DNA of 50,475 nucleotides from assembly GCA_002783405.1 (NCBI GenBank), contig PFGG01000053.1, forward strand, positions 1-50,475, given 5' to 3'. Source of the stretch: a bacterium (Candidatus Blackallbacteria) CG13_big_fil_rev_8_21_14_2_50_49_14 (GTDB taxonomy: Bacteria > Cyanobacteriota > Sericytochromatia > UBA7694). Shown piece after piece: positions 1,047 to 50,475 of the stretch. The notes under the pieces were generated by a model. It was given only the letters and a program-made list of their open reading frames with translations, ran no database searches and was not told the origin of the DNA. Both the position numbers and the translations under genes were made by a program. Position 1 is the stretch's first letter. Each line of letters starts with the position of its first letter.

Positions 1047-1072
1047 AATTTCTCCTGAAAAAACTTGAATTT

Positions 1073-5573: not shown

Positions 5574-5603
5574 CGTTTCCTCCAGAATTCAGTCCCCATC
5601 CAA

Positions 5604-5623: not shown

Positions 5624-5724
5624 AGTCTGTCACCCATCCTATCGGCAGACACGCCCGCCTGTGCGAAAATAGGAACAGGGATGCGAACCATGCATTTCGA
5701 TTTCAAATCAGGAGCCTTACTCAC

Positions 5725-5934: not shown

Positions 5935-5951
5935 ACAGAATTTTTTTAGTC

Positions 5952-12213: not shown

Positions 12214-12218
12214 AGCCC

Positions 12219-12617: not shown

Positions 12618-12688
12618 AAAAAAATCCTCCGTAGACTGATATTCTCAGCCTAACAGAGGATTCTTTGAATTTCCTTTGAAACGAAAGT

Positions 12689-13357: not shown

Positions 13358-13397
13358 TCAAAAATTTCCCTTCATATGATTTCAAAACTTAAAACAG

Positions 13398-13426
13398 GAT
13401 TGATTATAGCAAAATTATTATCAATC
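13398..13426. promoter_or_regulatory. Inverted repeat GATTGAT-N15-ATCAATC in the divergent promoter region between the efflux operon and the sensor kinase gene
   Basis: Seen directly: 7-bp perfect arms at 13398-13404 and 13420-13426. It is a candidate response-regulator binding site. Confidence 0.3.
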
Positions 13427-13490
13427 TGTAGAAAAAAATTGAATTCTAACCAGCCCATGGCTGCCCTGAAATTCTGCTAAAGTAGAGGCC

Positions 13491-14897
13491 ATGCAAACAG
13501 ATGTTTTTAAGTCTCACCGCTCGTTTATTCTGGAACTGACGCTCCGCTATTGCCTGTCATTTACCGTCCTGCTGCTTCTTTTGGGGGGCTTAAGCTATTT
13601 CAGCCTGCGTCGGGTTCTCTATGAAAATCTGGATCAGGGTCTGCAGGTCATCGGACGCAGCGAGGCTGATTTTGCAAGCAAAGGCCAGCATTTACACCTG
13701 CACCCCACTGCCAATGTGAATCCGGGCTCAGATACGCATACCCTGCCCCGCTATGTTCAGATCGTAAACCCAGAGGGGCAGATCCTGGCAGTAAACTTCG
13801 CACACCAAACAGCCCCACTCCCACTCGAATTGAAACGTTTGCATTCCAACAACAAACAAGCACAATACCTAACTGTTCATTATCAAAAGGCCGACTTTCG
13901 CCAGCTTTATCTTCCCTTTTCATACCAAAATCAAGTTTATTTTTTGATCGTGGTCAGCCCCTTGAGGCCCTTACAAAGCACCTTAGACTCTGTCTTCAAT
14001 GCCTATTTCTGGCTTTCAACCCTGCTGCTCTGTCTGGCAGGCATCATGGGCTGGCTTTTGGCCCATGATGCTGTCAAACCTTTGCATCGCATCACCCTGA
14101 CGGCCCAGGCAATTGGCGTGGGTCAACTTTCCGAACGCATTCCCATCGCCCCCGATACGCCACGAGAATTTGCAGAATTAACAGCAGTGCTCAATCAAAT
14201 GTTGGCACGTCTCGAAAACGCCGTACAAAATTTAAAACAATTCAGTGCAGATGCTTCTCACGAACTCAAAACACCGCTCAGTGTTTTAAAAGGGGAATTA
14301 CAGGTGGCCCTGCGCAGAGAACGCAATCCCCAGGAATACCAAGCCCTTTTAAACAGCAATCTTGAAGAGGTGAACCGCTTAATTGCGCTCACCGAAGGTC
14401 TATTGGCACTCAGTCGCTGGGAACAGGAAGAACCTCAAAAAGGGGAAAGCAATCTTCAGGCACTTTTCAAAGAGCTTCAGGCACGTTACGCGGATCTTGC
14501 CCAGAAACAGAAAATTGACTTGAAAATCGAAGTTCCTGAAAAAAATCTCCATTGCCCAGTGGCCCGACTGTATCTGAGCCAAATTCTCAGCAATCTGCTC
14601 GACAATGCTCTGCGTTTTTCTCAAGCCCAACAAACAGTATGGCTGCGGGCCGGAGAAACAAAGGAGCAGGTCTGGATTCAAGTTCAGGATCAGGGGCCCG
14701 GCATTGCCCCTGATGAACAGAAAAAGATTTTTGAGCGTTTCTACCAGATTGAAGCTTCACGCAGCGAAAATCGCAGCCACTTCGGCATCGGTTTGAGTTT
14801 GTCCAAAGCCATTACCGAAGCACACCAGGGCCAAATCAAGGTGGTTTCAAGCCCTCGCCAAGGCGCGTGTTTTGAAGTGCGCTTTCCCAAAAGCTAA
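13491..14897 (+). CDS. Two-component sensor histidine kinase (CusS/CopS-like heavy-metal sensor)
   Basis: Two TM segments flank a ~150-aa periplasmic domain. This is followed by a HAMP domain, then a HisKA domain (SADASHELKTPLSVLKGELQVAL), then an HATPase_c domain (N, G1, G2 boxes: DQGPGIAPDEQKKIFERFYQ, GIGLSLSKA). RBS AGAGG upstream. Confidence 0.9.
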   Translation: MQTDVFKSHRSFILELTLRYCLSFTVLLLLLGGLSYFSLRRVLYENLDQGLQVIGRSEADFASKGQHLHLHPTANVNPGSDTHTLPRYVQIVNPEGQILAVNFAHQTAPLPLELKRLHSNNKQAQYLTVHYQKADFRQLYLPFSYQNQVYFLIVVSPLRPLQSTLDSVFNAYFWLSTLLLCLAGIMGWLLAHDAVKPLHRITLTAQAIGVGQLSERIPIAPDTPREFAELTAVLNQMLARLENAVQNLKQFSADASHELKTPLSVLKGELQVALRRERNPQEYQALLNSNLEEVNRLIALTEGLLALSRWEQEEPQKGESNLQALFKELQARYADLAQKQKIDLKIEVPEKNLHCPVARLYLSQILSNLLDNALRFSQAQQTVWLRAGETKEQVWIQVQDQGPGIAPDEQKKIFERFYQIEASRSENRSHFGIGLSLSKAITEAHQGQIKVVSSPRQGACFEVRFPKS

Positions 14898-17175: not shown

Positions 17176-20100
17176 ATGAGTAGTATTTTCAGCAGCCGTC
17201 TCTATAGCCATCTGACTCAGGATCTGAATCAAACCCGTCTCGAAAATTATCAGGTCAATCGCTTTCAACGAACGGTTGAACAACAGGCCGCACAAGGCGA
17301 ACGAGAAAAACTCCTGCGTGAAGGACTCGAATACCATCAAGCCAAAATGGCGGATATGCAAACCCGTCTGAATGAGGTGCTTGAAAAACTGAACAATGCC
17401 TATCGCAGATATGTCGACAATAAAACCATGTACCGCAAGGTTGCCCAAGAAGAAAAGTATATGGGCACCAGCCAATTGCTCAATGATTTGCCCAATATTG
17501 ACAACCCCTCAGGACTGCCTGGGGTGTATCCCACAGGCCCGGCAGGAATTTTGCCCTTTGATGATCCAGGGAGAATCCGCAACTACAGCTACAACCCATT
17601 TTTTGGTTCAAAAGCAATTGATGAAAGCGATAAAACCCTGAATCGAACACATTGGCAGGTTCCCAATGAAATACTTGAAAAATCCTATACCGAAAATGGA
17701 GCTTTTTGGTCAAGTATCGCCTATCTCTGGGGTTGGGATCTTGATCGCATCAATGCGGCCTATGCCACCACCAGCAATGCCAATAACCTTCAGGTCAATG
17801 TCACCGCTCTGCAGCCCAATAAGCCGCAATACCCCCCGCTGCGTCCGGGGGATCGTTTTCCTTTGAATTGGAGTGATGGGCCCAGTGGCACCCTCCAGGA
17901 TTATCCAGCCATCAATATTCGCGGGCTGCGGCCGGGGGGCGTTGATTATAGCCATGCCACCGATTCGCTGGGAACAGGGGGCGATGAACTGACGTATACA
18001 GCCAATATCATCGGCCCTCCCAGCGGCAATGGAGCAGGCACTCCCCCTTCGGGAGGCAATCCTTTTTACGTGGACAATGGCACCTTTCTGGCAGCCGGAG
18101 ATACGGTCACCATCAATAAGTCAGGCGGCGGAGACCCCAATCAGACCCTTTCGGCTGTGGTGCCCCTGGCACCAGGCGATCCCTTTTACGATCCCGCATT
18201 CCCCAACCGACGCAAAATCTATACCAATGGTCCGGCTTATGGCTCCCCGGTGGACTCTGGCAGCATTCAAAAAAGTGTTCCCAGCAGCACAGCCCATATG
18301 AATGTGGTCGGAAAAAACAGCGTAAATTGGGGCTGGGAATTTGATGATCTCCCCCTTTCACTTGAAGTCACTTCTGTTTCTACCCAACCGGATGGAAATA
18401 CGATTCCGACGGGCTATAAGGTCGTTTACGATATTCCGCCAACGCATCCCTTCTATGAAGAATTCAAGGTACTGAATGGAACTGAACCCAAAATAACCGA
18501 TGCGCCCACAGAAATGGTCAAAGAACGCTTAAATAACGCAGGCTTTGATTATACGGGCTCGGTCTATTTTCCGGGCTCCAATGTGGTGGGGTTTCAGGTC
18601 GGCCCGCTGTTTCGAACCAGCCGGGGGGCATGGGTGGTTTCACAACCCGGTGAAAATGAATACGCGGCCCCCGGTCACTATACCTTTGCAGATGGCCCGA
18701 TTGCAGCCTTTGATTTGATCACCTGTCTGCCTGGACTGAGTCTGACAGATGCGACCCAAGTTTCTTTCCGTTACCGCTACCGCGTGCACCAAAACTCTGC
18801 CCAATTTGGTTCTACCTGGGATGACAGTGGGCCAGGCGTGCCCTCTCGCTTTGGCTTTAGTCGCCACGACTGGTCAAGCAACCCGGCCCAGCCCGATGTC
18901 TACGGAGGGGGCAATACCTTTGGCACGCCCATGCCCTCGACCTATCGCACCATTACCAATGAATCGATTCAAACCGCAGGAGGGGCCCCGATCAATATCA
19001 GCTTGGGCAGCCCCAAGAACCCAAATACCTTTGGTTCAGATTACTTAAAAACCAGCGGTTATGAAGAATTGGTTGCCCAAATTGTTCCTGTTCCAGGACG
19101 TGATGATGCCGTTCGGGTTCAATTTCTGTTTGAAGGGGATTTAAATGCACTAGAAATTGAAATCACAGATTTTCAGATTGTCAGCTATGATGGCACGCTG
19201 AATACCTGGGAACAGGGCAAATATACGCCCGGCAACGTCAACCCGGTGATCTGGGAAGGGGATCCGCAAATTACCCAGGCCGATAGTCCTGAAGAAGTGA
19301 TTAGCAAATATGTTCCCAATACCTATCAATTTACCCAGTTCAACGATCAATATACGAATGCCTTCAATATCGCCGATCGCAATGATATTGTCCGCAGCCC
19401 CTGGGAATTTGGTCTGCTCAATATGGACTCTGGCTCAGGCCTGAGTGGAGAACTCTGGCTGGACTTGAACGGACGCAGACTGAATTTGGATCACGATGCC
19501 GTCGTGGATCAGATCAAAGTCTGGGATGAGAGCATCGCAGCCCCTGTTCAAGCCAATACCGATATTCTTGAATCCGCAGCCATCGCGAAAGCCTATGCCT
19601 TTATTCCAGTTGAACACCCTGATGACGATTGTGGCCCCAATCCGGAGATGGAAGTCATTGCAGGTTCGGGCCCAGGCAACCCCTTCAATGCAGATGCGCC
19701 CACAGGGGGCATCCGCGTCGATTCTGTGGCCGGATTTACAGTGGGTGATGCCATTCTGATCGGAGGAGCAGGCCCCTATACCATCACGGGTCTGGTCAAT
19801 GATGCAGGTTCACCTGCCACGTTGACAACAGATCCTGTCTTTGACAATCCCGCCATCCCCAGCTATGAATACCGCCCCCCCTTTGATAGCTTGCCCGCAG
19901 GCGATCGACTCGGAACGTCTCTGCCCGTGGATCCTTCCAGTGATTTCCCGCTGACCCTGGGCGGTACGACCTATACGACCTATGGGGAGTTGGCTGCCGC
20001 CTTCCCGCCTCCCGCCTGGCACCCGGCTGCAGGCAACCCTTTGGATCCCCTCTATTGGGTAGAATATACCCAGTCTACTTCGCCCGCAGTGCCTGGGAGA

Positions 20101-23100
20101 CAGGAAGTTTATATCCATACCCCCATTGCTCCCCCAAGCGCAGGCACCCTTATTACCCCCTTTGTCGTCACTCCGGCCCCCCCCCATGTGGCCCAATTTG
20201 CAGATTCTGATCCCCTCAGCAGTTTTGCGCAACGCGAGGAACTGATGGGAGATGAAATCTTGATCGGTGAATTGCCACGTGATCCCGCCAGCATTGGCAT
20301 TGCCCCCTTGGATCCGGGCCGAACAGCCAATCCAACCGCCACTGACCCCAATAACAACGGTTTTACCTGGGCAGATGCAGATTTTTATGCGAACTTTGGG
20401 GTCTCCACTGAACATTCACCCTTTCCAAGTGAAGCCTATACCGTCAACAATCCCAGTAATTTTATTACAGGGGTTTCCAATGATCGGGGGGTCACCACCA
20501 ATCCCGATACGGCAGCAGCGGGCATAGTGGGAACCGTGGATCGTGTCATGGGTTCAGATATGGATATTGAATACCGAATTTCGATACCCACCCATGATGT
20601 CAACGTCTTGAGAAAAGAAAATAATTTATTGTTTAATTTGGGTTCGATCGACGAAAGGGATTGGGGCCTGGCAGTTCGAAATCCCTATATGGAATTCAGA
20701 ACCTCACCGGGATATACCACAGTGCCCCGCTATCGGGTCGATGCAGGTGGAAATATCTACGATCTTTTTGGCAAAGGCCATTATGAAGACGATGCTGCCC
20801 GAACTGAATTCAGTGCCCTCGATCAGGATTCGGTTCAAAGAGTTTATACCACGGCAGGCGGGGCCACGCTCAATAACCAGGTCAGCAACAGTGACAAAAG
20901 CTATGATTACAGCAATTATGCGGCCTATAATGCCGGTGCAGCCAATTTTGAAGACTATATCACCGGCCACAACCGACTGTCATTAAATGGAGACGACTAC
21001 AATCTCTTTGACTATGTGCCCGATCTGAATCTGGTTCCCGGTGATACAGAAGGCCGCCGCTTTGGTGAAACCTATATCGGGGCACTGCCCAGTAATTTTT
21101 ACTATTACCGCGAAAATCTCGATCAGGGGGTTTCAGGCAGTGGCACGCCCTTTACGGTCGATCCTGAACGCGATGGGGCTTTGGCACGCCTCAATGGCGA
21201 CAGCATGGCCGCCTTGAATTTTAATGGCCGTTTACAAAATCCTTCTGGCCGTTATGACATCGCCGACACAACGGTGGTACACAATCCCAATATGCCAGCC
21301 TGGTCAAGTGTGGTGATTGGCATTGCAGAGCAGGATGCAAAATTGCACAATGCCGAAAGAACCACCTCCAGCGCTTTTTGGCGGGGATTTAAGGCAGATG
21401 TACCACTGGCTTATGCCAAAAATGTCAATTTGGGGCAGACCCAAAATGTTCTGGGGCCAGAAAGGGCTGTCGGCGCCTCCAATTCAGTCTTCGCCACGAT
21501 GCAGGCCGGGGGTTCCAGTATCAGTTTGGAAATGGGCTCTGAAATCAATCGCTCGGGCCATTTGCTCATGAATGAGTGGGTCAATGGAAACATGCAACCC
21601 CATGCCATTCCCCTGCCGCTTTTCGATACCAGTACCTTTCCGCTGAACACCCCAAGCAACTATACTTTTTCTGCCTATGGGCCGGAAACAGTAACCCGAA
21701 CGGGCAGCCAATATATAGCCAATTTTCAGACAGATGTGCTCGATGCCGTGGATGGGCGCAAAGACAGCGTCATAGATCCCAGCTGGGCAGGCACCTTGCT
21801 CACGAATGCAGGAGGAACCGTCTCCGTCAGCCATCCCCCTGCGACCTGGAACAACGGCCTGATTTTGCATGTCGATGACGCAGCCGCTTTCGATGTTGAA
21901 GGCCCCCGCAATGAAGTCACGCTGGGCACAGATACCGCCACCCGGTACCGGGTGGTGTATAAAAACCCCACGGCCAGCCCGCAAACCTTGTTTTTGGTTC
22001 CCATCGCAGGGAGCGTACCCGCAGCCTATCAGAATTTTGTGCATACCGATCTACAGGTACGTCAGATCGTCGGCGAATATACGGTCAGTGTCACAGATCC
22101 AGCGGGTATTCCCAGCGCTTCAGGCACGCATCTGAAAATCGACTATGATGATCGGGGAACGCAAACTCCCGGTCAATTGGTCTCTGTTGCACTTTCTGCC
22201 GAGATGGATCGGGTCGGCAGATTTGCGCTCGATGATCCACGGGTGCCTGGGGTAGAAAGCGATGATCCCGCCACCCCCAGCGTGAATGAAGGGCAGAGAA
22301 TTGCCCCTGAAATTTTCAACTCCCCCCGAGGCTATGTTCAAAGCGACGCCCAACTCAGTTTAAACCTGGTCAGTCAAGACAAAGACGGCAATCTGCGTCC
22401 GCGAAAACTGAAGTCTGTGCGGGTTGAAATAGAGCATGGGGAACAGCTGATTCCCCATCAGGTGGCACAAGCCTATACCACCACAGGCCCCTTTGATATC
22501 AACGGAGAATGGCCGATTGCGATTTTTGAAGGTGATACCCAACTCAATCCCTATGTCAGCACAGATCTGGGGATTTTAGTCGGTCATTATCAGGGCATCA
22601 GCGATGGCAGCAATGCCATGAACAGTGTCTCCCCTTCGCTTGAGCTGATCTCCACAGAGGGCTTTGCGGTCGGGCAGGAAATTTCAGTCAACGGCGAAAA
22701 ACGCCTGGTTGCTGGCATTTCAGGCAATACCCTGAGCTTGGACAGCCCCTTGAGCACCCTTCCCCAACCAGGGGATCGTCTCAATTTGGGCAATGGTCTG
22801 GGAACCCGTGAACTCTCACTTTTTCTCAACAAATCCTATGCTATGTCAGCCGGTGCCCCAATCCGTATCCATCTGGAATATGATGAATACGATGTGATCG
22901 GATTTCCTCCCCGAATAGATACCTCGGCTCCTGTACGCAGTACCCAGGAGACGATCGGATTCAGCGATCCCAATACCGCTCAGCGGATGCAGATTCTGGA
23001 ATCCAATACCGGCGATGGAAGTGCAGGCAGTCCCATCGCTGTTCAATCGACCCTGGGATTCAATCCCGGTGATGTGGTGAATATCAACAGTGTGACACGG

Positions 23101-23472
23101 CGAATTACAGCCCTTGATAATGTGGGCAATACCCTGACCCTGGATCGCCCCTTGACCACCTCACTGGGTCAAACCCTGAGCAGTGGCACCATTTACCGCA
23201 GCGACTACGAAGACTTCGTACAGGTCGGTCCTGGCCGTTCAGGGGGAAGTTTTGAAAACGACTTGACCCAAGAACTCAAACGGATCATCGACAATCCTGA
23301 ATACCAGGAACTCTTACGTTACGGTCTGATGAAAAATCTCTTTATCAGTGCAGCCAGCAATGATCCCTTCGGCAATCTGATCAGTTCAAAACTCTTTTTA
23401 AACTGGATGCGCAATAAACGTCAGATGGAAATCAGCCAAACATCTTTTATGGCCTATTATAAGTCCATTTGA
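17176..23472 (+). CDS. Giant hypothetical protein (2098 aa) with an N-terminal coiled coil and no signal peptide. It is Gly/Pro/Asp/Thr/Asn-rich and carries three copies of a ~40-aa F.VGD.I.I.G....IT.L....TL.LD.PL motif
   Basis: A single uninterrupted 6.3-kb ORF sits 22 nt after the propeller gene, with RBS CAGGAGAAAGG. The motif copies begin near aa 848 (GFTVGDAILIGGAGPYTITGL), aa 1833 (GFAVGQEISVNGEKRLVAGISGNTLSLDSPL) and aa 1957 (GFNPGDVVNINSVTRRITALDNVGNTLTLDRPL). No family could be assigned from the sequence alone. Confidence 0.8.
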   Translation: MSSIFSSRLYSHLTQDLNQTRLENYQVNRFQRTVEQQAAQGEREKLLREGLEYHQAKMADMQTRLNEVLEKLNNAYRRYVDNKTMYRKVAQEEKYMGTSQLLNDLPNIDNPSGLPGVYPTGPAGILPFDDPGRIRNYSYNPFFGSKAIDESDKTLNRTHWQVPNEILEKSYTENGAFWSSIAYLWGWDLDRINAAYATTSNANNLQVNVTALQPNKPQYPPLRPGDRFPLNWSDGPSGTLQDYPAINIRGLRPGGVDYSHATDSLGTGGDELTYTANIIGPPSGNGAGTPPSGGNPFYVDNGTFLAAGDTVTINKSGGGDPNQTLSAVVPLAPGDPFYDPAFPNRRKIYTNGPAYGSPVDSGSIQKSVPSSTAHMNVVGKNSVNWGWEFDDLPLSLEVTSVSTQPDGNTIPTGYKVVYDIPPTHPFYEEFKVLNGTEPKITDAPTEMVKERLNNAGFDYTGSVYFPGSNVVGFQVGPLFRTSRGAWVVSQPGENEYAAPGHYTFADGPIAAFDLITCLPGLSLTDATQVSFRYRYRVHQNSAQFGSTWDDSGPGVPSRFGFSRHDWSSNPAQPDVYGGGNTFGTPMPSTYRTITNESIQTAGGAPINISLGSPKNPNTFGSDYLKTSGYEELVAQIVPVPGRDDAVRVQFLFEGDLNALEIEITDFQIVSYDGTLNTWEQGKYTPGNVNPVIWEGDPQITQADSPEEVISKYVPNTYQFTQFNDQYTNAFNIADRNDIVRSPWEFGLLNMDSGSGLSGELWLDLNGRRLNLDHDAVVDQIKVWDESIAAPVQANTDILESAAIAKAYAFIPVEHPDDDCGPNPEMEVIAGSGPGNPFNADAPTGGIRVDSVAGFTVGDAILIGGAGPYTITGLVNDAGSPATLTTDPVFDNPAIPSYEYRPPFDSLPAGDRLGTSLPVDPSSDFPLTLGGTTYTTYGELAAAFPPPAWHPAAGNPLDPLYWVEYTQSTSPAVPGRQEVYIHTPIAPPSAGTLITPFVVTPAPPHVAQFADSDPLSSFAQREELMGDEILIGELPRDPASIGIAPLDPGRTANPTATDPNNNGFTWADADFYANFGVSTEHSPFPSEAYTVNNPSNFITGVSNDRGVTTNPDTAAAGIVGTVDRVMGSDMDIEYRISIPTHDVNVLRKENNLLFNLGSIDERDWGLAVRNPYMEFRTSPGYTTVPRYRVDAGGNIYDLFGKGHYEDDAARTEFSALDQDSVQRVYTTAGGATLNNQVSNSDKSYDYSNYAAYNAGAANFEDYITGHNRLSLNGDDYNLFDYVPDLNLVPGDTEGRRFGETYIGALPSNFYYYRENLDQGVSGSGTPFTVDPERDGALARLNGDSMAALNFNGRLQNPSGRYDIADTTVVHNPNMPAWSSVVIGIAEQDAKLHNAERTTSSAFWRGFKADVPLAYAKNVNLGQTQNVLGPERAVGASNSVFATMQAGGSSISLEMGSEINRSGHLLMNEWVNGNMQPHAIPLPLFDTSTFPLNTPSNYTFSAYGPETVTRTGSQYIANFQTDVLDAVDGRKDSVIDPSWAGTLLTNAGGTVSVSHPPATWNNGLILHVDDAAAFDVEGPRNEVTLGTDTATRYRVVYKNPTASPQTLFLVPIAGSVPAAYQNFVHTDLQVRQIVGEYTVSVTDPAGIPSASGTHLKIDYDDRGTQTPGQLVSVALSAEMDRVGRFALDDPRVPGVESDDPATPSVNEGQRIAPEIFNSPRGYVQSDAQLSLNLVSQDKDGNLRPRKLKSVRVEIEHGEQLIPHQVAQAYTTTGPFDINGEWPIAIFEGDTQLNPYVSTDLGILVGHYQGISDGSNAMNSVSPSLELISTEGFAVGQEISVNGEKRLVAGISGNTLSLDSPLSTLPQPGDRLNLGNGLGTRELSLFLNKSYAMSAGAPIRIHLEYDEYDVIGFPPRIDTSAPVRSTQETIGFSDPNTAQRMQILESNTGDGSAGSPIAVQSTLGFNPGDVVNINSVTRRITALDNVGNTLTLDRPLTTSLGQTLSSGTIYRSDYEDFVQVGPGRSGGSFENDLTQELKRIIDNPEYQELLRYGLMKNLFISAASNDPFGNLISSKLFLNWMRNKRQMEISQTSFMAYYKSI

Positions 23473-25109: not shown

Positions 25110-28100
25110 CTAAAGCAAGGCTTCGGCGGCTTGTATTTCAGCCAACATGCCCAAACGTTTGGCCAATTTGATACTTTTTTTCCAATGGCTTCGGGCTGAA
25201 CTCAGTTGTTCCTGAAACTGCGCAATTTTTCCCTGATAGAGTTCAAAACGTGGGCCCGCCATGGGAAAACGATGGGCAAATTCCTGAAAGGCTTCCCGCA
25301 GTTCCAATACGCTTTGGGGCAAACAGGCCATTTCTCCTGCACCTTCACAGTGCAAAAGATATTCCATTTCGGCGGTAAAGACTTCAAGATCCGTCGCTGA
25401 AATCGCTTCCTGGCTATTGTCCTTCAGATCGACCAATTCCTGGGCCAGTCGATGGGCCTGTTGGAGATCTCCTGCTTTTAAAGCCAGGCGCAAGAGGATG
25501 GCCTGAGATTGCACCCTCAACCGGCCCCCCAGACTCTCCGCCAGGGCGCGCGATTGTTTGGCAAGAGAAAGTGCCAATTGAATTCTGTCCTGGAGCAAAT
25601 GCACGCGGGCCTGGGTTTCAAGTGAACGGGATTCCAACTCCTTGTCCCCCCTTTGGCGCGCCAATTGCGAAGATTGTTGTGAGAGTTCAAGGGCCCGCTC
25701 TATTTGGCCCTGATAAAAACGAACCTGCGCCAAAAGTCCCATGCTTTCATTGCAGTGGCGTAAATCCTTCTGGCGACGGTAGAGTTCGGTGGATTGAAAC
25801 AATCCGTACTCAGCCTGCTCCCATTGGGCCTGACCCAAACTGTATAAACCTGTCAGCTGAAAAACCCAGGCCCGGCTGGAAAGATCGTCCAAAACTTCGG
25901 CCTGTTGCAAGGCTTTGCGCGCAAAATATTCAGCAATCGGACGCTGCCCCAAAAAACCACAGATCAAGGCGATATTGGCATAGGCCCGCGCCAATTGGGG
26001 AGAGGGGCCAGCCTCTTCACAGAGATTGACAATCAAAAGTGCATTGTAAAGGCCCAAGGTCTTTTCGCCATTCAAATAATAAATTTGCCCCAGGCGCTCA
26101 CAGGTCTGAGCGGCTGCCAGAAGGCGCTTTTTTTCATCGGGATCAATCCAAACCTGTCCGGGTCGAATGCGGTGACGCAATTGCGTTAAAATCTGAGGCA
26201 AAAGTTGACGGGGAGCCAAATCTGCCGGAGGAGGCGGCCAACCGGAAAGCGTCAGAGATTTTTGCAGATGCCTTTGACTTTCGGTCAATTGACCCAATCC
26301 ATAATGGGCTTCGCCCAGACCTTGATGCACCGTCGCCATCCAGTCGTGGCTCATTTCAAAACCGGCATGCTGCAAACTTTGCAAGAGAAAGAAAATCGCC
26401 TGCTGGTACAAACCATCCTCCAAAGCTGACTGACCTGAAATCAAAAGATATTGACAAGACTTGACGGCAACACGGGCCTGGGTCCAGTGATAGGCCAAAA
26501 GCGTGGCATGGGCTGTGAGATCATCTTCAAATTCTTGCTCCAGCCAGGCCGCTACCTGCTGGTGAAGCTCCCGTCTCTGCTCTGAGAGCAAAAGACTGTA
26601 GATGGCCTGGTGAGTCAAATTGTGGCGAAAAACATAGGAAAGGCTCGGAAAAACCCCCACCAATTGAATCATATTGATATTTTCAAGTGCTCTGAGCGAA
26701 TCCAAGAGGCCTTCGCGATCCTGAACCAGGGGGTAAATATCATAGAGGGCCTTGAAATCAAATTGCCGGCCAATGACACTGGCGATTTTCATGGCCAACT
26801 GCTGAGTCGGTAAAAGCCGATCAAGACGGCTGACAATCGCCCCTTCGATTGAATTTGGCAATTGCAGCTGTCGCAGCTCTTCCGGACTCAAGGAGAGTTC
26901 ACATTGGCCCTGGTTGACCTTTAAATGTCCATTTTCACGCAAACTCAACGCCAATTCCTGGCTGAAAAAAGGGTGGCCTTCGGCACGTGAAGCAATCAAA
27001 TCCAAAACTGCTGCGGGCACGCTGTGAACCCCCAGCTTACTGGCCACCAGGGTCTCAATTTCTGCAGCAGGCATGCGACCCAAAATCATATGCTCTGCCA
27101 GAGGCGATTTCTGTAAATTTTCCCAGGCTCTCAGGCAGATCTGGGGAGTCTTATCGTCGGCATTGGCCAAAGGGCGACAAACGAGCACAACCATCAATCC
27201 GGGTACTTCATAGCGTACCTGTTCCACCAATTGCCACGACAGACTGTCTAACCACTGGCTGTCATCCAAGACCACGATCAAGGGTTCAACACTCACGGCA
27301 TCCTGCAAGACTGCCGTCAAAATATCCAAGGTGTTCTGAATCCGTGCTTCCCCCCGAAAAGAGAGGGTGGTGGCATTATCAGGAATTTCAAGATCTAAAA
27401 CCGGCCCCAAGAGCGGAATATATTCACTTAAATGGGGATAAAAACTCATATGTCCCCGCAACTGTTCAAGTCGCAGACGCGAAGGCAGATGAACAGAAAT
27501 CCCCAAAAGATCGCAAAACACACGCTGCCAGGCATACCAGGGCGTATGTTGCTGCAGGGCATCGGCCTCGGTCATCAGCAAGGCCGAACCTAAGCGCGCT
27601 GCTTCAGTCTGAAGATGGCGCACCAGCGTGGTTTTACCTACCCCCGCTTCACCCTCCAGAAAAACCAGGCTTGAACTGCGGTATTGACTGAGTTGGCGGG
27701 CTATCTCTAAAAGCTTCTCAGTTTCTGCCAAACGTCCGACTTGCGAATCATAGTGAAAATGGCGGGCCAGCGCCATGCGGGGAGAATAGATCTCAAGTGG
27801 CGTATTCTTGCCTTTGAGCAGAACAGGCGCCAGTTCATCAAATTCAAATTGGGACTGCGTTAAACTCCAAGTTTGACGATCGACGACAATCTTTTCTTTT
27901 GCAAACTGCATCAAACGTGCAGCCGTATTGACCGTATCCCCCAAAAGTGTATATTCCCGTCGCCAGTCGGAGCCCACTTCACCACAAAAAACACGACCAC
28001 TGGTAATGCCCATCGAGGCGGTTAACGAAAAACCTGCAAGCAAAGACTCCAATTCCAAGGCTGCAGTGACTGCGCGTTGTGCATTGTTTTCATGCGAAGC

Positions 28101-29036
28101 AGGCGGCAAGCCGAAGACAGACAGCAAGGAAAGCCCTTTTTCATCCAGATTGATTTTATTGACGGTTCCACCATGAAAGGAAATTTTTTCTTGAATCAAA
28201 GAAAGCCAACGGGGAAGTTGCTCTGGCGTTAAGGCTGGCAGTAAAAGGAAAAGTACTGAAACTGTGCGCAATTCAGCCAGCCAGTTTTGCTGCCCTGCAG
28301 CAAGCCGGTAGCGCACCACCTCAGGTAAATAATTTAAGAGCCAGGCATCGGGCAAGGCTGTTTCTTGAAAATAGGGCTCATTGGGTCGTGAAATATCGGG
28401 TAAGGTATGAAGAATGCCATAGTGTTCAGCTATCGCTTGATACCCAGTTTCCGGCGGGCACCAACTCAAGGCCTGGGGCCCCAAAACCACTTGGCCAGGC
28501 TGGGCCATACCTTCAGCGGCAAAAGCACTCGAAACCCCTGCGCCGGAAAGAATCAGCTCCCAGTGTTGGTGGCGGTTCTGTAAATGCAAAAAGAGCAAAT
28601 CACCCCATTCCAAACCAATCCGAATCTGAAGTGGCATGGGCATTTTCGTGCGCAAGCCCTGACTGAGCACCTGCATTTCAAGCGCACAGGCAGCGGCCCG
28701 AGAGATCAGCATGGCATTGGATTCAGGCACCAGCGATCGGCTCCAGACAGCCAGCAGCGCATCACCTGCAAACTTTATTACATCGCCATCCCAGGCGCGG
28801 ATACGCTCTAAAAGACCGCCAAAATACAAATTCAAGGTTTGACTCAGGGTTTCTATTCCCTCAGAACCTTCTTGTCCCAATTGTTCTGCAAGTCGTGTAA
28901 ATCCGGAAATATCCGCGAAAAGCACGATTCCTTGATCACTCCAAAGAAAAGGCAGCTGATCAGGCCCACGACTAAGACGTTGCCTGACAACCCGGGGAAC
29001 ATAACCAGAAAACAGAGATTCCAAGCTTGTTTGCAT
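25110..29036 (-). CDS. Signalling protein with tandem class III adenylate/guanylate cyclase domains, an AAA/STAND NTPase and TPR repeats
   Basis: Two cyclase homology domain blocks (FADISGFT ... FAGDALLAVW and FHGGTVNKI ... GDTVNTAARL). Then a Walker A motif GEAGVGKTTL. Then about 400 aa of TPR-like helical repeats. 1308 aa. Confidence 0.88.
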   Translation of the reverse strand: MQTSLESLFSGYVPRVVRQRLSRGPDQLPFLWSDQGIVLFADISGFTRLAEQLGQEGSEGIETLSQTLNLYFGGLLERIRAWDGDVIKFAGDALLAVWSRSLVPESNAMLISRAAACALEMQVLSQGLRTKMPMPLQIRIGLEWGDLLFLHLQNRHQHWELILSGAGVSSAFAAEGMAQPGQVVLGPQALSWCPPETGYQAIAEHYGILHTLPDISRPNEPYFQETALPDAWLLNYLPEVVRYRLAAGQQNWLAELRTVSVLFLLLPALTPEQLPRWLSLIQEKISFHGGTVNKINLDEKGLSLLSVFGLPPASHENNAQRAVTAALELESLLAGFSLTASMGITSGRVFCGEVGSDWRREYTLLGDTVNTAARLMQFAKEKIVVDRQTWSLTQSQFEFDELAPVLLKGKNTPLEIYSPRMALARHFHYDSQVGRLAETEKLLEIARQLSQYRSSSLVFLEGEAGVGKTTLVRHLQTEAARLGSALLMTEADALQQHTPWYAWQRVFCDLLGISVHLPSRLRLEQLRGHMSFYPHLSEYIPLLGPVLDLEIPDNATTLSFRGEARIQNTLDILTAVLQDAVSVEPLIVVLDDSQWLDSLSWQLVEQVRYEVPGLMVVLVCRPLANADDKTPQICLRAWENLQKSPLAEHMILGRMPAAEIETLVASKLGVHSVPAAVLDLIASRAEGHPFFSQELALSLRENGHLKVNQGQCELSLSPEELRQLQLPNSIEGAIVSRLDRLLPTQQLAMKIASVIGRQFDFKALYDIYPLVQDREGLLDSLRALENINMIQLVGVFPSLSYVFRHNLTHQAIYSLLLSEQRRELHQQVAAWLEQEFEDDLTAHATLLAYHWTQARVAVKSCQYLLISGQSALEDGLYQQAIFFLLQSLQHAGFEMSHDWMATVHQGLGEAHYGLGQLTESQRHLQKSLTLSGWPPPPADLAPRQLLPQILTQLRHRIRPGQVWIDPDEKKRLLAAAQTCERLGQIYYLNGEKTLGLYNALLIVNLCEEAGPSPQLARAYANIALICGFLGQRPIAEYFARKALQQAEVLDDLSSRAWVFQLTGLYSLGQAQWEQAEYGLFQSTELYRRQKDLRHCNESMGLLAQVRFYQGQIERALELSQQSSQLARQRGDKELESRSLETQARVHLLQDRIQLALSLAKQSRALAESLGGRLRVQSQAILLRLALKAGDLQQAHRLAQELVDLKDNSQEAISATDLEVFTAEMEYLLHCEGAGEMACLPQSVLELREAFQEFAHRFPMAGPRFELYQGKIAQFQEQLSSARSHWKKSIKLAKRLGMLAEIQAAEALL

Positions 29037-43187: not shown

Positions 43188-45248
43188 ATGCAAAATCAAA
43201 ATAGCTTTCAAATCGAACTCCAAATCGGGTTGAAATTTTTAAAAAATTTTTTCTTGCATCTATGTTCTGAAATATTTCTCATCATTTTTTTGCAAATACT
43301 TATTTGTATCGGTCTAAGTGGCTATTATTTCTTACTTGGAAGCTATTTTCATGAAGCATTTTTAAGCTATCTTCCCTTCGGAAATAGCTATTTGCTTGGA
43401 TTCATTGTTTTTTTAAGCCTGATAAGCAGCTTTTTACTTTCAGGTTGGCTCAGCCTTCGCTATATAGATCCCGAGCAGAGTCTGAAGCAACTCTACCAAA
43501 CCTTGCCTTTAAAAAATTATTTCCTGATCGCAGGGCTTATTGCCAGTTCCTGCGCAGCATTTTCAGAGTTCTTATTAAAAATTCCAGTTTTCAGAGAGAG
43601 CGTGTGGACACTGCTCTCTCTTTCTCCCAAAAGTATTTCTGCTTATATTATTGGGCTTATGGTCTGCTTGAATGCCATAAGTTGGGCTCTCATTCCTGGC
43701 TACACACTCGAACTCAGCTTTGAAGAGTTTCAATTTAAAAGTCAAATTTGGAAAAACAAAGAAAAACTCTTGATTTTGCTGCTGACTTACACTTTGCTCA
43801 ATCTGGGTCTCTTTTTTTGTTTCAGTCTTTGGAAAAGTCTTTTACTCACACAGTTAATAAGTTTATTGGTCAGTGCCGTTTGCTTACTTTTGTTCAGTAT
43901 TTTTTGGATTCAGATCCTGAAGCCAAATTCTCTGACACTGAAGCGTTCCCATCATCCTCGGCAATTTCTGAGTGTTCTGGTTCTCAGCAGCTTGGGCATT
44001 GGATGCTTCTTTTGGGCCCAGAGACATAACCAAGATCTCTTTGTTCAATACCAGAAACAGTATCTTGAGCAGGTAAAAATATGGGCTGATATGCGTATGC
44101 ATAGAAAAGCACTTTGGGGAAAGAGTCAGAAAGGGGATGGAAGAGATTATTACCAAGGTCTCATTCTAGAACCAATTCATGAACAAAATAAAATAGATTT
44201 TTCAGATATAAATAAAATTTTTCAACAAAATAAAATAGTTTCAAATAATTTATTTGATTTTGAAAACATTTACTCAGATAATCAAGAGGTGATTGCCAAA
44301 TATGCCCCACTTGTTTCCACGATTGAAAATGCTGTCAATAGTGAGACACTGAGTCCCTTACAAACTGAATTTCATCTCAAAGCACAACAACCTGTTTTTG
44401 CAAATATACAAAATCTAATGCGCATCTTGATCGTGACCACACACCATCAATTTGAGACCGGTCAAACACAGAAAGGTTTTACCAATCTCATCCTGTTGAT
44501 GCGTTTTGCACAGGATATTCGATACAATGGAACTTTGGTGTCAGATATGGTTGCTCTGGTGATGCAATCCACTGCTACTCAGGAATATTTGCGCGTAGCC
44601 AATCCCCAAACACTTGGTAAGCCCCTCTCAGAGAAGCTTCTTTTACAATGGCACTTGCTCTCAATAGATCAAAATCTTTTAGAAGGTACCTTTCTGAGAG
44701 AAATTCTATTCTTAAATGGAGTCTTGCTCGATGCAGATGATCTAAAAGACGAATTTGGAGAAGGCATTCTGCCTTCTCTGCTCAAACAAATAACTTTGCC
44801 CTATTTACTCTACACCCTTGAGCTCAGTCAACCATTGGCAAAAGAAATGGATCGAGTCATTCAAACCATGCCCTATAAGCTCTCCCATCAACTTTTGAAA
44901 AAACTTAAATCAGAATTGCCTCAAAAAAATATCATATTGAGATTAAGTTTGCCGACCATGTTAGGCGCTGAAGAAAAAAAATGGCTCAATAAAATCCGTT
45001 GGGATATGGCCTATTTAAAAACAGCTTTGATTGCTTGGAAACACAACCACAAAAACTACCCTGACAAACTTCAGGATTTGGTACCCGCAATCATTCCCAG
45101 CCTCCCTATCGACCCCTACTCAGGCAAATCTTATGGTTATACGCTTAGCAAAGATCGCTATGAACTTAAAAGCCAATACCAAGAATACATGGAAAAAGAA
45201 AATGCCGACACGAATGCTTCCCTCAGCATTTATAGACAGAAATTTTAG
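43188..45248 (+). CDS. Hypothetical polytopic membrane protein (about 7 N-terminal TM helices plus a ~400-aa soluble C-terminal domain), in an AT-rich island
   Basis: A long ORF with strongly AT-biased codon usage relative to the surrounding genes. The exact start is uncertain. Confidence 0.55.
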   Translation: MQNQNSFQIELQIGLKFLKNFFLHLCSEIFLIIFLQILICIGLSGYYFLLGSYFHEAFLSYLPFGNSYLLGFIVFLSLISSFLLSGWLSLRYIDPEQSLKQLYQTLPLKNYFLIAGLIASSCAAFSEFLLKIPVFRESVWTLLSLSPKSISAYIIGLMVCLNAISWALIPGYTLELSFEEFQFKSQIWKNKEKLLILLLTYTLLNLGLFFCFSLWKSLLLTQLISLLVSAVCLLLFSIFWIQILKPNSLTLKRSHHPRQFLSVLVLSSLGIGCFFWAQRHNQDLFVQYQKQYLEQVKIWADMRMHRKALWGKSQKGDGRDYYQGLILEPIHEQNKIDFSDINKIFQQNKIVSNNLFDFENIYSDNQEVIAKYAPLVSTIENAVNSETLSPLQTEFHLKAQQPVFANIQNLMRILIVTTHHQFETGQTQKGFTNLILLMRFAQDIRYNGTLVSDMVALVMQSTATQEYLRVANPQTLGKPLSEKLLLQWHLLSIDQNLLEGTFLREILFLNGVLLDADDLKDEFGEGILPSLLKQITLPYLLYTLELSQPLAKEMDRVIQTMPYKLSHQLLKKLKSELPQKNIILRLSLPTMLGAEEKKWLNKIRWDMAYLKTALIAWKHNHKNYPDKLQDLVPAIIPSLPIDPYSGKSYGYTLSKDRYELKSQYQEYMEKENADTNASLSIYRQKF

Positions 45249-47010: not shown

Positions 47011-47154
47011 CCCCTTTTTTGAACACCGATGATTGAATCTGTGTCTTTATCATAGTTTATAAAGGAGTGATTGAGACAGCCTGATATTTGAATTTCAAAC
47101 ACTTCAATTCCTGATAAACTTAATTCAAATAAAACATATTAAAGGCTATAAATT

Positions 47155-47673
47155 ATGGATATAGAATTAATTTTAGCAAATTTATTAAGTTTTAAAGGCC
47201 CCTGGACCCAAACTACACTGAATGATTATTTAACTCAGATAGGCGCTGAAAAATCAGAACCAGCTGAGGCTTCTGATGATGAAGAAATTTGGTTTTTAAA
47301 TGGCTTACGCTTACATTTGAGTAGCGAAAATTCAGATCGAGGACTGCAACTGACGAGCTTGCTCAAATCCATTGAAGTGGAAAATCTTGATGAAGAGGAA
47401 TTTGATGCTGCAGATACTGAACTGGCAGATCAATACACGGCATTGATTGATGAGTTAAGCACGCGTTTGGATTCCCCCGTCTTTTCTGGTATCGTTTCCC
47501 AAAGCCCATTCACCCAAGAACAATACGGAGATCTGGGGGCCTGTTGGCTTCTTCCCGAGGCTCGTCTGATGCTCATCAGTGGGCAACAGGACACAGAATT
47601 GCCTCTGCAAATTCAATTGGTGATAGCCCCACTTCAAAGCCAAGTAAAACGTGAAGAACAAAATCGGTCTTGA
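47155..47673 (+). CDS. Hypothetical acidic protein (172 aa) immediately upstream of the vault-protein homolog
   Basis: A clean ORF with an Asp/Glu-rich centre. Its stop codon lies inside the -35 element of the downstream promoter. Confidence 0.55.
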   Translation: MDIELILANLLSFKGPWTQTTLNDYLTQIGAEKSEPAEASDDEEIWFLNGLRLHLSSENSDRGLQLTSLLKSIEVENLDEEEFDAADTELADQYTALIDELSTRLDSPVFSGIVSQSPFTQEQYGDLGACWLLPEARLMLISGQQDTELPLQIQLVIAPLQSQVKREEQNRS

Positions 47674-47696
47674 CAAGTAAATATAAAATGTATAAT
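47670..47696 (+). promoter_or_regulatory. Near-consensus sigma70-type promoter (TTGACA-15 nt-TATAAT) for the major vault protein homolog gene
   Basis: TTGACA at 47670-47675 and TATAAT at 47691-47696. An AAAGGAG RBS sits 7 nt before ATG 47733. Confidence 0.6.
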
Positions 47697-47732
47697 ATAC
47701 ACTTATAAAGCTTCCTAAAAGGAGAAAGTCCC

Positions 47733-50174
47733 ATGGGTGAATCAAGTAGAGAACGCGATCTGGTTCTGGCGCCAAATGAATATGCCTTTATCTCAGACCA
47801 AACCAAAGGCAATATCAATGTCTATGTGGGGCCCTATAAAACCTCTCTTGCCAATACCGACCAACCGGTGATCTTCAATGCCGATAACAAACGCTTTGAA
47901 AGGGTTTTGCTTGAGCAATCGATAGCGATTTTCGCCACAGCCCCCGAAGGCTGGTATTTGGTCATGAAAAATCCTCCCAAAGACGGCAATCAACCCAAAA
48001 ATGGGACCGTCAGCAACTTAACCGAGCTTGAAATTGGGCACAAGGTCAATACCCCAGGACCGATCTCCTTTGCGCTCTGGCCCGGCCAAATGAGCCGGGT
48101 CATCAAGGGGCATCACCTGCGTTCCAATCAATATTTACTGGTCAGGGTTTACGATGAAGAATCTGCACGTAAACATTGGAACAAAGCCGTGATCAAACCT
48201 CAGTCAGGCAGCGAAGAAGTTCCACTGACAGAACAGGAAATACCCGACTTGACCCTTGGAAATCTGCTCGTCATCAAAGGAACCGAAATCTCATTTTATA
48301 TTCCCCCTACAGGCATGGAGGTGGTAAGGGATAACCAAGGGCATTATGTGCGCGAAGCGGTTACCTTGGAAAGACTTGAGTACTGTATTCTGCTGGACGA
48401 AGATGGAAACAAGCGTTTTATTCAAGGGCCAGACGTGGTTTTCCCGAAACCAACTGAGACCTTTGTCGAGAAGCAGGGCACACGCAAATTCCGTGCCATC
48501 GAGATGAATGAGAACAGTGGCATCTATCTCAAAGTCATTGCCCCCTATGAAGAAAATGGCAAAAGCCATAAGGTCGGTGATGAAATCTTTGTCACCGGCA
48601 AAGAGCAGATGATTTATTTTCCCAGACCCGAACATGCGATTATCAAATACGGGGAACAGGAAATCCACTATGCCGTCGCCTTGCCTGCCGGTGAGGGTCG
48701 TTATGTCTTGGATCGCGCCAATGGCCAGGTCTTTCTTCAAAAAGGCCCCAGTATGTTTCTCCCGGATCCGCGTCACCAAGTAATTGTGCGTCGGGTTTTG
48801 GAACCCAATCAGGTTCAACTCTGGTTCCCTGGCAATCAAGAAGCTTTGGAATACAATCTACATCTCAAGGAAATGCTGCGTCAGGAGCGGGGAGAATACG
48901 CAACTGAGGCCCAGGTCATGCAACTCAAAGCTGAGAAAAGAACATTGCCGGCTCCTGCTCCAGCTCTTGCCGCAGAAGGATTTGCAGGGGATGATTTTTC
49001 ACGCAAAACCAAGTATACGCCCCCGCGAACAATTACCCTGGATACCAAATATGATGGAGCCGTGGCCATCGCCATTTGGACAGGCTATGCCGTACTGGTG
49101 GTGAGCAAAACGGGTGAGCGCAAAGTGATTGTTGGGCCCGCTACACATTTATTGGAATACGATGAATTTCTTGAACCCATGACTCTCTCAACAGGCACCC
49201 CCAAAACAGATTTAAAACCCCTTAAAACTGTCTATTTACGGGTCTTGCACAATAAAGTTTCGGATCAGGTCAGAGTGGAAACCTCGGATTTCTGTGAAGT
49301 GACCCTTGATCTCTCTTACCGCGTGAATTTCGAAGGCAATCCTGCGCTGTGGTTCAATGTAGAAAACTATGTCAAGTTTTTAACTGAACATCTGCGTTCG
49401 GTTTTGCGCAATGCGATCAAGCAATTGGGAATCGAGGCTTTTTACGCAGACTCCATTCGCCTGATTCGCGATACGATTCTGGGCCTGCCTGAAGAAGGCA
49501 AACGTCCCGGAAGGCATTTCGAAGAAAATGGCATGCAAATCTACGATGTTGAGGTTCTCAATGTGCGCATCACCGATGCCGAAATCGAGAAAATGTTGAT
49601 CAATGCCCAGCGCAAAGTGGTTGAACAGACGCTCGCACTTTCTTCTGAGCGCCGCAAACTCGAATTTGTAAGAGAAAATGAAGAAATTAAACGCCAGATC
49701 TCACGCTCACAGGCCGAAACACGCAAAGAAGAATTGCGGCTTCAAATTGAAGAACTGAGTACTGAACTGGAACTGAAACTGGCACGCCTGAGCAGCGAAA
49801 TTGAAACCGAACAAGCCAAACTTGAGGCCAAAATGGCCTCTCAGACCACACTGGGTAAAATAAACGCGGCAGAATTGGAACGTCAAAAAGCCAGCGCAGA
49901 ATTGGAGCTCGAAACTGCACGCCTGAGAATGGAACAAAGAATTTCCAATCTGCGTGCAGAAGTAGAAGCCATGGTTGCCAAAGCAGAAGCCATTTCACCC
50001 GATCTGATTGCCGCCCTACAAGCCTTTGGAGACAAGGCATTGGCAGAGCGCATGGCAGAATCCATGGCGCCTCTGGCTATTTTAGGTGGGCGCAGTGTAG
50101 CAGAAGTTCTCTCAGGGCTTCTGAAAGGCACCAAATTGGAAAATGTATTGCTCAAACAACCCCCAATGAATTAA
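47733..50174 (+). CDS. Bacterial homolog of the eukaryotic major vault protein (N-terminal MVP repeats, SPFH-like shoulder domain, long cap-helix coiled coil)
   Basis: The N-terminus LVLAPNEYAFISDQTKGNINVYVGPYKTSLANTDQPVIF parallels the MVP N-terminus (IPPYHYIHVLDQNSNV.RVEVGPKTY...ERVLF). Internal YCILLDEDGNKRFIQGPDVVFP matches the MVP repeat pattern YCVILDP.G. The shoulder region VRVETSDFCEVTLDLSYRVNFE matches MVP [21 protein letters not shown]. About 150 aa of heptad coiled coil then precede the C-terminal cap region. Confidence 0.88.
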   Translation: MGESSRERDLVLAPNEYAFISDQTKGNINVYVGPYKTSLANTDQPVIFNADNKRFERVLLEQSIAIFATAPEGWYLVMKNPPKDGNQPKNGTVSNLTELEIGHKVNTPGPISFALWPGQMSRVIKGHHLRSNQYLLVRVYDEESARKHWNKAVIKPQSGSEEVPLTEQEIPDLTLGNLLVIKGTEISFYIPPTGMEVVRDNQGHYVREAVTLERLEYCILLDEDGNKRFIQGPDVVFPKPTETFVEKQGTRKFRAIEMNENSGIYLKVIAPYEENGKSHKVGDEIFVTGKEQMIYFPRPEHAIIKYGEQEIHYAVALPAGEGRYVLDRANGQVFLQKGPSMFLPDPRHQVIVRRVLEPNQVQLWFPGNQEALEYNLHLKEMLRQERGEYATEAQVMQLKAEKRTLPAPAPALAAEGFAGDDFSRKTKYTPPRTITLDTKYDGAVAIAIWTGYAVLVVSKTGERKVIVGPATHLLEYDEFLEPMTLSTGTPKTDLKPLKTVYLRVLHNKVSDQVRVETSDFCEVTLDLSYRVNFEGNPALWFNVENYVKFLTEHLRSVLRNAIKQLGIEAFYADSIRLIRDTILGLPEEGKRPGRHFEENGMQIYDVEVLNVRITDAEIEKMLINAQRKVVEQTLALSSERRKLEFVRENEEIKRQISRSQAETRKEELRLQIEELSTELELKLARLSSEIETEQAKLEAKMASQTTLGKINAAELERQKASAELELETARLRMEQRISNLRAEVEAMVAKAEAISPDLIAALQAFGDKALAERMAESMAPLAILGGRSVAEVLSGLLKGTKLENVLLKQPPMN

Positions 50175-50188
50175 AGCTTAAAACCCAG

Positions 50189-50220
50189 AGAGAAGTCAGG
50201 CCTTTCAACCTGACTTCTCT
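50189..50220 (+). terminator. 12-bp perfect stem-loop after the vault-protein homolog gene. A probable transcription terminator, but it lacks a clear U-tract
   Basis: AGAGAAGTCAGG - 8-nt loop - CCTGACTTCTCT, 15 nt after the stop codon. Confidence 0.45.
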
Positions 50221-50475
50221 TCAGTTGAAAGCGCACTTTATTCACTGACAATAAGCAATACTTTCATTTGAAATAGATCGGAGGACAATGAACTACATCC
50301 CTCCAACCCGCATGGGTATGGAGGGAGTTTCGTGCTTCACAGAGAAAAGTTTCTCTCCACACAGGGCCGGTTCCCGACCCTTCATACTCTCTAATGCCCA
50401 GTTTAAGATCACACGTGCAGCATTCTGATCGCGACTCAAGGTTAAGCCACATGGACATGCGTGTTGCCTTTCGGA

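Follow-up and report, generated by a model that had tools for sequence, protein, structure and literature searches.

A major vault protein homologue encoded in the genome of Candidatus Blackallbacteria, a non-photosynthetic relative of the photosynthetic Cyanobacteriota

Contig PFGG01000053.1 (50,475 nucleotides, analysed over its whole length and referred to below as the window) comes from Candidatus Blackallbacteria, a lineage of the Sericytochromatia, i.e. the non-photosynthetic Cyanobacteriota, and encodes close to its right-hand end a protein of 813 amino acids (aa) that we regard with near certainty as truly belonging to the major vault protein (MVP) family. Eukaryotic MVP builds the vault shell alone, giving a particle of 67 nm made up of 39-fold half-vaults (78 chains). 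Taken as a whole, the explanation that we consider reasonably probable is that of a native and constrained bacterial MVP, which would self-assemble to form a shorter vault-like shell.

The preliminary description of this locus had placed the 813-aa open reading frame (ORF) where we also find it (Table 1) and had noticed a likeness to eukaryotic MVP in all three structural regions, i.e. the repeats, the shoulder and the cap-helix; this likeness lies far above chance by Pfam, BLASTP, hhalign and Foldseek alike. Because profile, pairwise and structural evidence agree, we take the product to be an MVP homologue. In the profile search that had been proposed for the Vault and MVP_shoulder families, MVP_shoulder (PF11978) was matched well above its cut-off (97.4 bits against 25; E-value 7e-28) over positions 2–118 of the 118 in the profile, Vault_3 came out slightly below its own threshold, and both families were matched in 30 of the 30 family members tested. 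Pfam Band_7 was also matched, more weakly than MVP_shoulder (31.3 bits; cut-off 23.6). A generic band-7 protein devoid of MVP repeats was considered and rejected, the MVP repeat region having been found by profile, alignment and structure.

Pairwise comparison was made with a human MVP sequence identical to PDB 11dr_A over all 893 residues. BLASTP aligned residues 198–766 with human 253–814 at 25% identity (E-value 6e-24), and hhalign aligned residues 213–813 with human 274–866 at 99.3% probability. The N-terminus was likewise recovered by hhalign from a 121-sequence profile, residues 1–502 being co-linear with human 1–517 (98.4% probability; E-value 5e-15). Searched as a single protein with phmmer, the sequence gave no MVP match in the PDB even at an E-value of 10 or less, whereas a family-profile search of the same database matched rat and human MVP at an E-value of about 5e-25. 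NCBIfam, PADLOC and PHROGs returned nothing for the MVP-like protein, nor for two of its neighbours described below (an acidic and a lipoprotein-like protein).

The predicted structure of the monomer, also proposed in the preliminary description, points the same way. An AlphaFold2 (AF2) model built on a diverse alignment of 121 sequences reached a mean predicted local distance difference test score (pLDDT) of 84.8; the repeats scored more than 90 and the shoulder higher still (Table 1). When the alignment comprised 30 similar sequences, the N-terminus was unusable (pLDDT 50.7). The best 16 Foldseek matches of the model were all vault structures (E-values from 1e-35 to 1e-14), including the isolated murine R1–R7 fragment. 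Seven N-terminal units, at about aa 9–49, 54–113, 120–190, 195–236, 242–288, 301–353 and 445–499, were counted from the strand groups of the model together with a recurring hairpin motif (Y-x-h-h ... G-x-x-x-h-h-x-GP), and segment profiles matched R1, R2, R6, an R3/R7-type unit, R8 and R9 of the nine-repeat eukaryotic protein. Residues 80–200 (about 120) stand opposite human residues 70–270 (about 200), where the hhalign alignment is gappy and the unit retained among R3–R5 is not assignable. The R8-equivalent repeat carries a helical and disordered insertion of about 80 residues (aa 358–440), which varies in length within the family. From the model, the bacterial family thus appears to have seven repeats instead of nine. 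The predicted cap-helix was aligned to that of human MVP by BLASTP and hhalign, and to rat MVP by the PDB profile search. In the C-terminal region that follows it, which is modelled at low confidence, hhalign carries the alignment on as far as human residue 866, and the motif SPDLIAALQAFGDKALAERMAESMAPLAILGG is conserved in the family.

The shoulder belongs to a fold that is also found in membrane-associated domes and rings of the flotillin, HflK/C, prohibitin and QmcA type, and the protein could in principle act likewise, as the organiser of a patch of membrane or as a cage around a membrane protease, and not as a free cytoplasmic vault. We judge this to be improbable. No hydrophobic anchor was found in the 813-aa protein (maximum 19-residue Kyte-Doolittle hydropathy of 1.46), and roughly 500 residues of MVP-type repeats occupy the place where SPFH proteins carry their anchor. 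Flotillin, HflK/C, prohibitin, stomatin and erlin appeared among the Foldseek matches only at 1e-7 or weaker, and MVP matches were better than SPFH matches by 10 to 28 orders of magnitude. Moreover, no NfeD, FtsH or comparable membrane partner was encoded near the gene, either here or in the 81 related loci.

The MVP family to which this protein belongs is widespread in bacteria. A word-indexed search gave at least 6,705 significant matches, the best 120 of which were all full-length, 62–87% identical and drawn from many phyla, many of them already named 'major vault protein' by the Joint Genome Institute (JGI). Two peptide patterns alone retrieved at least 283 species-representative genomes, and an exhaustive search with the N-terminal 505 residues returned 873 clusters (at 50% identity) with E-values of 1e-3 or less, 463 of them at 1e-30 or less. 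Carriers include Myxococcota, Bacteroidota (Cytophagales, Microscillaceae and Chitinophagales), Chloroflexota, Riflebacteria, Planctomycetota, Desulfonema, Moduliflexus, Vulcanimicrobiota, Bacillota and Sericytochromatia. Cultured organisms among the carriers are Enhygromyxa salina DSM 15201, Thermoflexibacter ruber DSM 9560 and Microscilla. Full-length relatives with 60–87% identity are thus present in hundreds of bacterial species of about ten phyla, and the earlier statement that prokaryotic homologues are rare does not hold.

Such proteins have been described before. A study published in 2013 (Daly et al., 2013; PMC3762200) listed proteins that share about 25% identity with eukaryotic MVP from the bacteria Microscilla, Saprospira, Plesiocystis, Corallococcus, Flexibacter and Herpetosiphon, and reported that members of this bacterial class pass its criteria of fold and docking for the formation of vaults. 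An in silico analysis of bacterial MVP-like proteins by Sokolskyi (2019; 10.1101/872010) noted the additional Band_7 match, predicted nucleotide-binding pockets and pointed to the filamentous, gliding or predatory nature of many carrier lineages; phage copies, together with AF2 models, were contributed by Santos et al. (2023; 10.1101/2023.11.10.566534). The bacterial class has therefore been known in silico since 2013, in database annotations as well as in print, and a Sericytochromatia/Blackallbacteria host is not among the lineages named there, so that the gene presented here contributes one additional host lineage (Sericytochromatia) to a known bacterial family.

The gene is native to its bacterial host and strongly constrained. 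Its codon usage and its G+C content at third codon positions (GC3, 0.49), whose fit to the host had been proposed as a check, are host-typical, and the same gene order is found in independent assemblies of the host organism. The closest MVP loci (85% identity) come from metagenome-assembled genomes of Candidatus Sericytochromatia/Blackallbacteria. Comparison with a sister strain (locus L088) gave an MVP identity of 98.9% and a ratio of non-synonymous to synonymous substitution rates (dN/dS) of 0.024. Across 121 diverse relatives the repeat region is the best-conserved portion of the protein, as would be expected if the surfaces of the repeats were packing interfaces.

In a neighbour-joining tree, calculated without support values, the bacterial proteins grouped mostly by phylum and the 813-aa protein fell within a Sericytochromatia clade. 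This grouping by phylum speaks more for a long history in bacteria than for a recent transfer. The phylogeny that the preliminary description had suggested as a test for transfer was thus phylum-coherent for the bacterial proteins; taken together with the codon usage above and the further evidence below, it excludes a recent transfer. Two placements in the tree stand apart: the MVP-like proteins of Desulfonema (L016 and L030) lie within a Chloroflexota-rich clade, and a Gemmatimonadaceae protein (L067) lies within the Polyangiaceae, which may reflect inter-phylum transfer or mis-binning.

That the gene might be eukaryotic contamination, or a recent acquisition from a eukaryote, is scarcely credible, and contamination had already been judged unlikely. 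A eukaryote-to-bacterium transfer for bacterial MVPs was raised by Daly et al. (2013), chiefly for the Oscillatoriales proteins, which are about 54% identical to eukaryotic MVP. The protein studied here shares only 25% identity with human MVP against 60–87% with hundreds of bacterial proteins that cluster by bacterial phylum; ordinary bacterial genes lie nearby (resistance-nodulation-division (RND) efflux, P-type ATPase, two-component systems and UvrD), the gene order is identical in independent assemblies, and codon usage and GC3 match the host. Among this content is a metal-efflux cluster at 3387–14897, in which a heavy-metal P-type ATPase bearing an HMA domain is accompanied by an outer-membrane factor, an RND pump and a membrane-fusion protein; a histidine kinase adjoins the cluster, which is ordinary bacterial content that confirms the bacterial host.

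The product is a soluble cytoplasmic protein in which the MVP domain order is complete, with a predicted stack of seven small beta-repeat domains, an SPFH-like shoulder, a cap-helix and a C-terminal helical region. By analogy with eukaryotic MVP, many copies of it would pack side by side. Their repeats would then make up the wall, while bundled cap-helices would close the pole of what would be a vault-like, hollow dome or barrel. Because each chain has two repeats fewer, this shell would not reach the 67 nm of the eukaryotic particle, and it would be made of protein only, since no equivalent of TEP1, PARP4 or vault RNA was found nearby. For cage assembly by the 813-aa protein, considered by itself, the analogy tips the balance slightly in favour.

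Several points weigh against this interpretation. The argument for a cage is one of analogy throughout, and in the literature searched we found no experimental characterisation of a bacterial MVP or of bacterial vault particles, so that the homologues are, as had been stated, still experimentally uncharacterised. The protein departs from the solved MVPs by an insertion of 80 residues and by the lack of two repeats, for which reason the curvature and symmetry could differ or a closed assembly could fail. In the 813-aa protein itself, Vault_3 was matched by one repeat only, at 28.5 against a threshold of 28.8; model confidence in the C-terminal region is low (pLDDT 50–60); and the family-averaged hydropathy of the cap-helix, a poorly aligned region, gave no significant 3.5-residue periodicity (p = 0.70). 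As to a ribonucleoprotein, Rfam yielded no family at threshold and no vault RNA on the whole 50,475-nt contig, and no TEP1/TROVE or PARP4/PARP neighbours occurred in 82 loci.

An MVP fold that never closes into a shell would be consistent with some of these points. The protein would then be an elongated soluble scaffold or a small oligomer that, for example, binds nucleotides or ADP-ribose at its shoulder. The human vault shoulder has a nucleotide/ADP-ribose pocket (10.64898/2026.05.01.722283; PDB 9mxj and 9mxv), the pockets predicted by Sokolskyi (10.1101/872010) lie in bacterial MVP-like proteins, the repeat number and the insertion are unlike those of cage-forming MVPs, and the assembly of a bacterial MVP is argued from analogy. 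We nevertheless hold such a scaffold to be unlikely, given that 60–67% identity is maintained across distant phyla over the whole repeat stack with the low dN/dS reported above, and that closed oligomers are formed by all relatives of the shoulder-plus-helix module whose structures have been solved. Multi-interface self-assembly fits this pattern, because the constraint exceeds that usual for a simple scaffold, and a self-assembling, shell-forming MVP remains the reading that we prefer.

Table 1. Features of the MVP-like gene, its product and its immediate surroundings in the window.
Feature	Coordinates	Strand	Remarks
MVP-like gene, 813 aa	47733..50174	+	product soluble, without transmembrane segment
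N-terminal MVP repeat region, aa 1–505	47733..49247	+	seven predicted beta-repeat units
Shoulder (SPFH-like) domain, aa 506–615	49248..49577	+	PF11978; pLDDT above 95
Cap-helix, aa 616–751	49578..49985	+	single continuous helix of ~136 residues in the AF2 model
C-terminal helical region, aa 752–813	49986..50174	+	aligned to human cap-ring region; family-conserved
Acidic protein gene, 172 aa	47155..47673	+	isoelectric point (pI) 4.05; neighbour, not a conserved partner
Ankyrin-repeat gene, 424 aa	45736..47010	-	Pfam Ank_2, 5e-66; divergent; not a conserved partner
Lipoprotein-like gene, 158 aa	45263..45739	-	lipobox; overlaps ankyrin gene by 4 nt
Putative sigma-70-like promoter	47670..47698	+	consensus match only; overlaps stop of upstream ORF
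Shine-Dalgarno AAGGAG	47721..47726	+	6 nt before ATG; kept in L088
Perfect 14-bp inverted repeat	50189..50220	.	15 nt past stop codon

Judged by its signals, the MVP gene is a stand-alone unit with a promoter-like site, a ribosome-binding site and a terminal hairpin of its own. The near-consensus promoter and strong ribosome-binding site reported earlier are present as elements, the function of the promoter being predicted from its consensus match, and the stop codon of the acidic gene does sit inside the promoter as described, its TGA being overlapped by the TTGACA at 47670–47675. Two candidate -10 elements follow, namely TATAAT at 47691–47696 (15-nt spacer) and TAATAT at 47693–47698 (17-nt spacer; 10 of 12 positions matched). 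The predicted promoter is the sole 10/12 match in the region, and it is kept, with unchanged spacing, in the sister strain. The hairpin said to close the unit is a perfect repeat with a folding energy of -26.9 kcal/mol (z -5.4), and none of 200 shuffled sequences folded as well; the repeat, which likely marks the end of the transcript, has no T-run on the + strand and a weak one on the - strand. The contig and two independent assemblies of the same organism (L086 and L087) all end 300–350 bp past the MVP stop (equivalent to 50503–50525), which suggests an assembly-breaking repeat just downstream of the gene.

The acidic, ankyrin and lipoprotein-like genes lie around the MVP gene as placed in the preliminary description, and the divergent ankyrin and lipoprotein pair, with its short overlap, is confirmed; what fell away from the 'compact locus' proposed there is the partnership, the comparison of gene order having revealed no conserved partners. 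An unbiased clustering of neighbours across 82 loci gave no family in more than 11 of them, and those that recurred were generic (histidine kinase and ABC ATPase) and stood at variable distances, on which basis a conserved operon around MVP was rejected. The MVP gene thus has no conserved gene partner across phyla, and because of this guilt-by-association is uninformative as to its function.

Each neighbour has a history of its own. The acidic protein gave three matches among 5.8 billion proteins and has no homologue in the 81 related MVP loci, and its only distant relative sits in a neighbourhood that lacks an MVP gene. In the sister strain it is 87% identical, with a 45-codon deletion and a dN/dS of 0.38, and its GC3 is 0.35 against 0.49 for the MVP gene. 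It is a fast-evolving near-orphan that stands beside the MVP gene only in its own species-level cluster. The ankyrin gene, whose product is 92.5% identical in the sister strain, adjoins MVP only in the host species (this contig and L086–L088) and in L001, and is absent beside it in L002–L005 and L085, where MVP is 85–87% identical, as well as in other phyla; with adjacency in two lineages only, the suggestion that it is a vault partner was not borne out. The ankyrin protein also matches the PADLOC defence candidate PDC-M72A (4e-56), and MzaA weakly, which probably reflects generic ankyrin similarity. The lipoprotein-like family is defined by a lipobox, a P/S/T-rich linker and a conserved DSRCPxDVxCVWAGEV motif, has no Pfam match, and was not found by profile search outside a Sericytochromatia subclade. 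Its homologues divergently adjoin the MVP gene in L001–L005 and L085 while the other flanking genes change.

A single functional module comprising MVP, the acidic protein and the ankyrin–lipoprotein operon, e.g. a shell with its cargo or adaptor, is accordingly very improbable in our estimation. The genes are adjacent, and the promoter of MVP overlaps the stop of the acidic gene; the order ankyrin–acidic–MVP is kept in L088 and the order ankyrin–lipoprotein–MVP in L001, and the lipoprotein-like gene stays beside MVP in seven Sericytochromatia loci that differ in their other flanks. Yet the rarity, rapid evolution and large deletion of the acidic protein, the separate setting of its one distant relative, the absence of the ankyrin gene from close relatives and the ceiling of 11 in 82 loci for any neighbour family all speak against a module, and the lipoprotein would be exported whereas MVP is cytoplasmic.

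Next to the lipoprotein-like gene, a hydrophobic protein of 686 aa (43188–45248, + strand; GC 0.376; no Pfam match) is missing from every related MVP locus but occurs in identical form in further assemblies of this organism. Elsewhere in the window, two ORFs of 236 and 696 aa at 366–3163 (- strand) have a GC of 0.31–0.32 and a GC3 of 0.23–0.25, against about 0.50 elsewhere on the contig, gave no Pfam, PADLOC or PHROGs match, and resemble a foreign island at its left edge. An acidic ORF of 2098 aa (17176–23472, + strand; pI 4.57), matched by neither Pfam nor PHROGs, directly follows a PQQ_2/BamB-like beta-propeller gene. A STAND-like protein of 1308 aa at 25110–29036 (- strand) combines guanylate-cyclase, AAA_16 and TPR domains, and the same architecture recurs in L001 (22116–22445), about 10 kb from the MVP gene.

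For decades it has been an open question what vaults do. If the shell-forming reading is true, a single-gene bacterial vault with no TEP1, PARP4 or vault RNA found nearby would be a tractable system in which to study the role and origin of the shell. More tentatively, and here we stop somewhat short of calling it probable, bacteria may build protein-only, seven-repeat vault nanocompartments and the bacterial family may be ancestral to the eukaryotic vault shell; such an ancestry would reverse the eukaryote-to-bacterium transfer favoured in 2013, and the Sericytochromatia member would then be one of many entry points to what a minimal vault encloses. Being large and highly constrained, the bacterial MVP family as a whole is a worthwhile experimental target.

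Set beside eukaryotic MVP (rat 4V60/4HL8; human 9BW5/11DR), the 813-aa protein has the same domain order and predicted fold, and the two can be aligned co-linearly between residue 1 and about residue 810, at about 25% identity. It differs in having a predicted seven repeats against nine, with one unit opposite R3–R5, in the longer insertion within its R8-equivalent, and in the lack of TEP1, PARP4 or vault RNA among the features found nearby; shell assembly is known for the eukaryotic protein, whereas the bacterial one is known here from its sequence and a monomer model. SPFH/band-7 cages (HflK/C, QmcA, flotillin, prohibitin, stomatin and erlin) likewise combine a shoulder-like SPFH domain with a long helix behind it that bundles to close a dome, but they are membrane-anchored and have no MVP repeat stack, and in Foldseek they lie at 1e-7 or weaker against 1e-35 for MVP. 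Phage MVPs (Caudoviricetes ctOa11 and ct2Ri15) are reported to be about 23% identical to human MVP and nested within the bacterial MVPs (10.1101/2023.11.10.566534), whereas the gene described here is chromosomal, with no PHROGs match and no phage genes around it.

Within the Cyanobacteriota, to which its host also belongs, MVPs are known from the Oscillatoriales (Moorea/Lyngbya F4Y3B4, Oscillatoria acuminata K9TKX8 and Microcoleus K9WB38). According to Daly et al. (2013; PMC3762200), these group inside Amoebozoa and share just some 16% identity with the chemotroph-type bacterial class. Unlike them, the 813-aa protein belongs to the chemotroph-type class, although its host is a cyanobacterial sister lineage. 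That class is represented by the proteins of Microscilla marina (A1ZGE7), Saprospira grandis (H6L4P8) and Enhygromyxa salina (A0A0C2D5V5), and by those of Plesiocystis pacifica, Corallococcus coralloides and Herpetosiphon aurantiacus. Our protein matches those encoded at the loci of Enhygromyxa salina and Microscilla (L065, L069 and L074) with 60–62% identity over its full length, and it shares with the class its length of about 820 aa, its identity of about 25% to eukaryotic MVP and its additional Band_7 match, so that only the host lineage differs.

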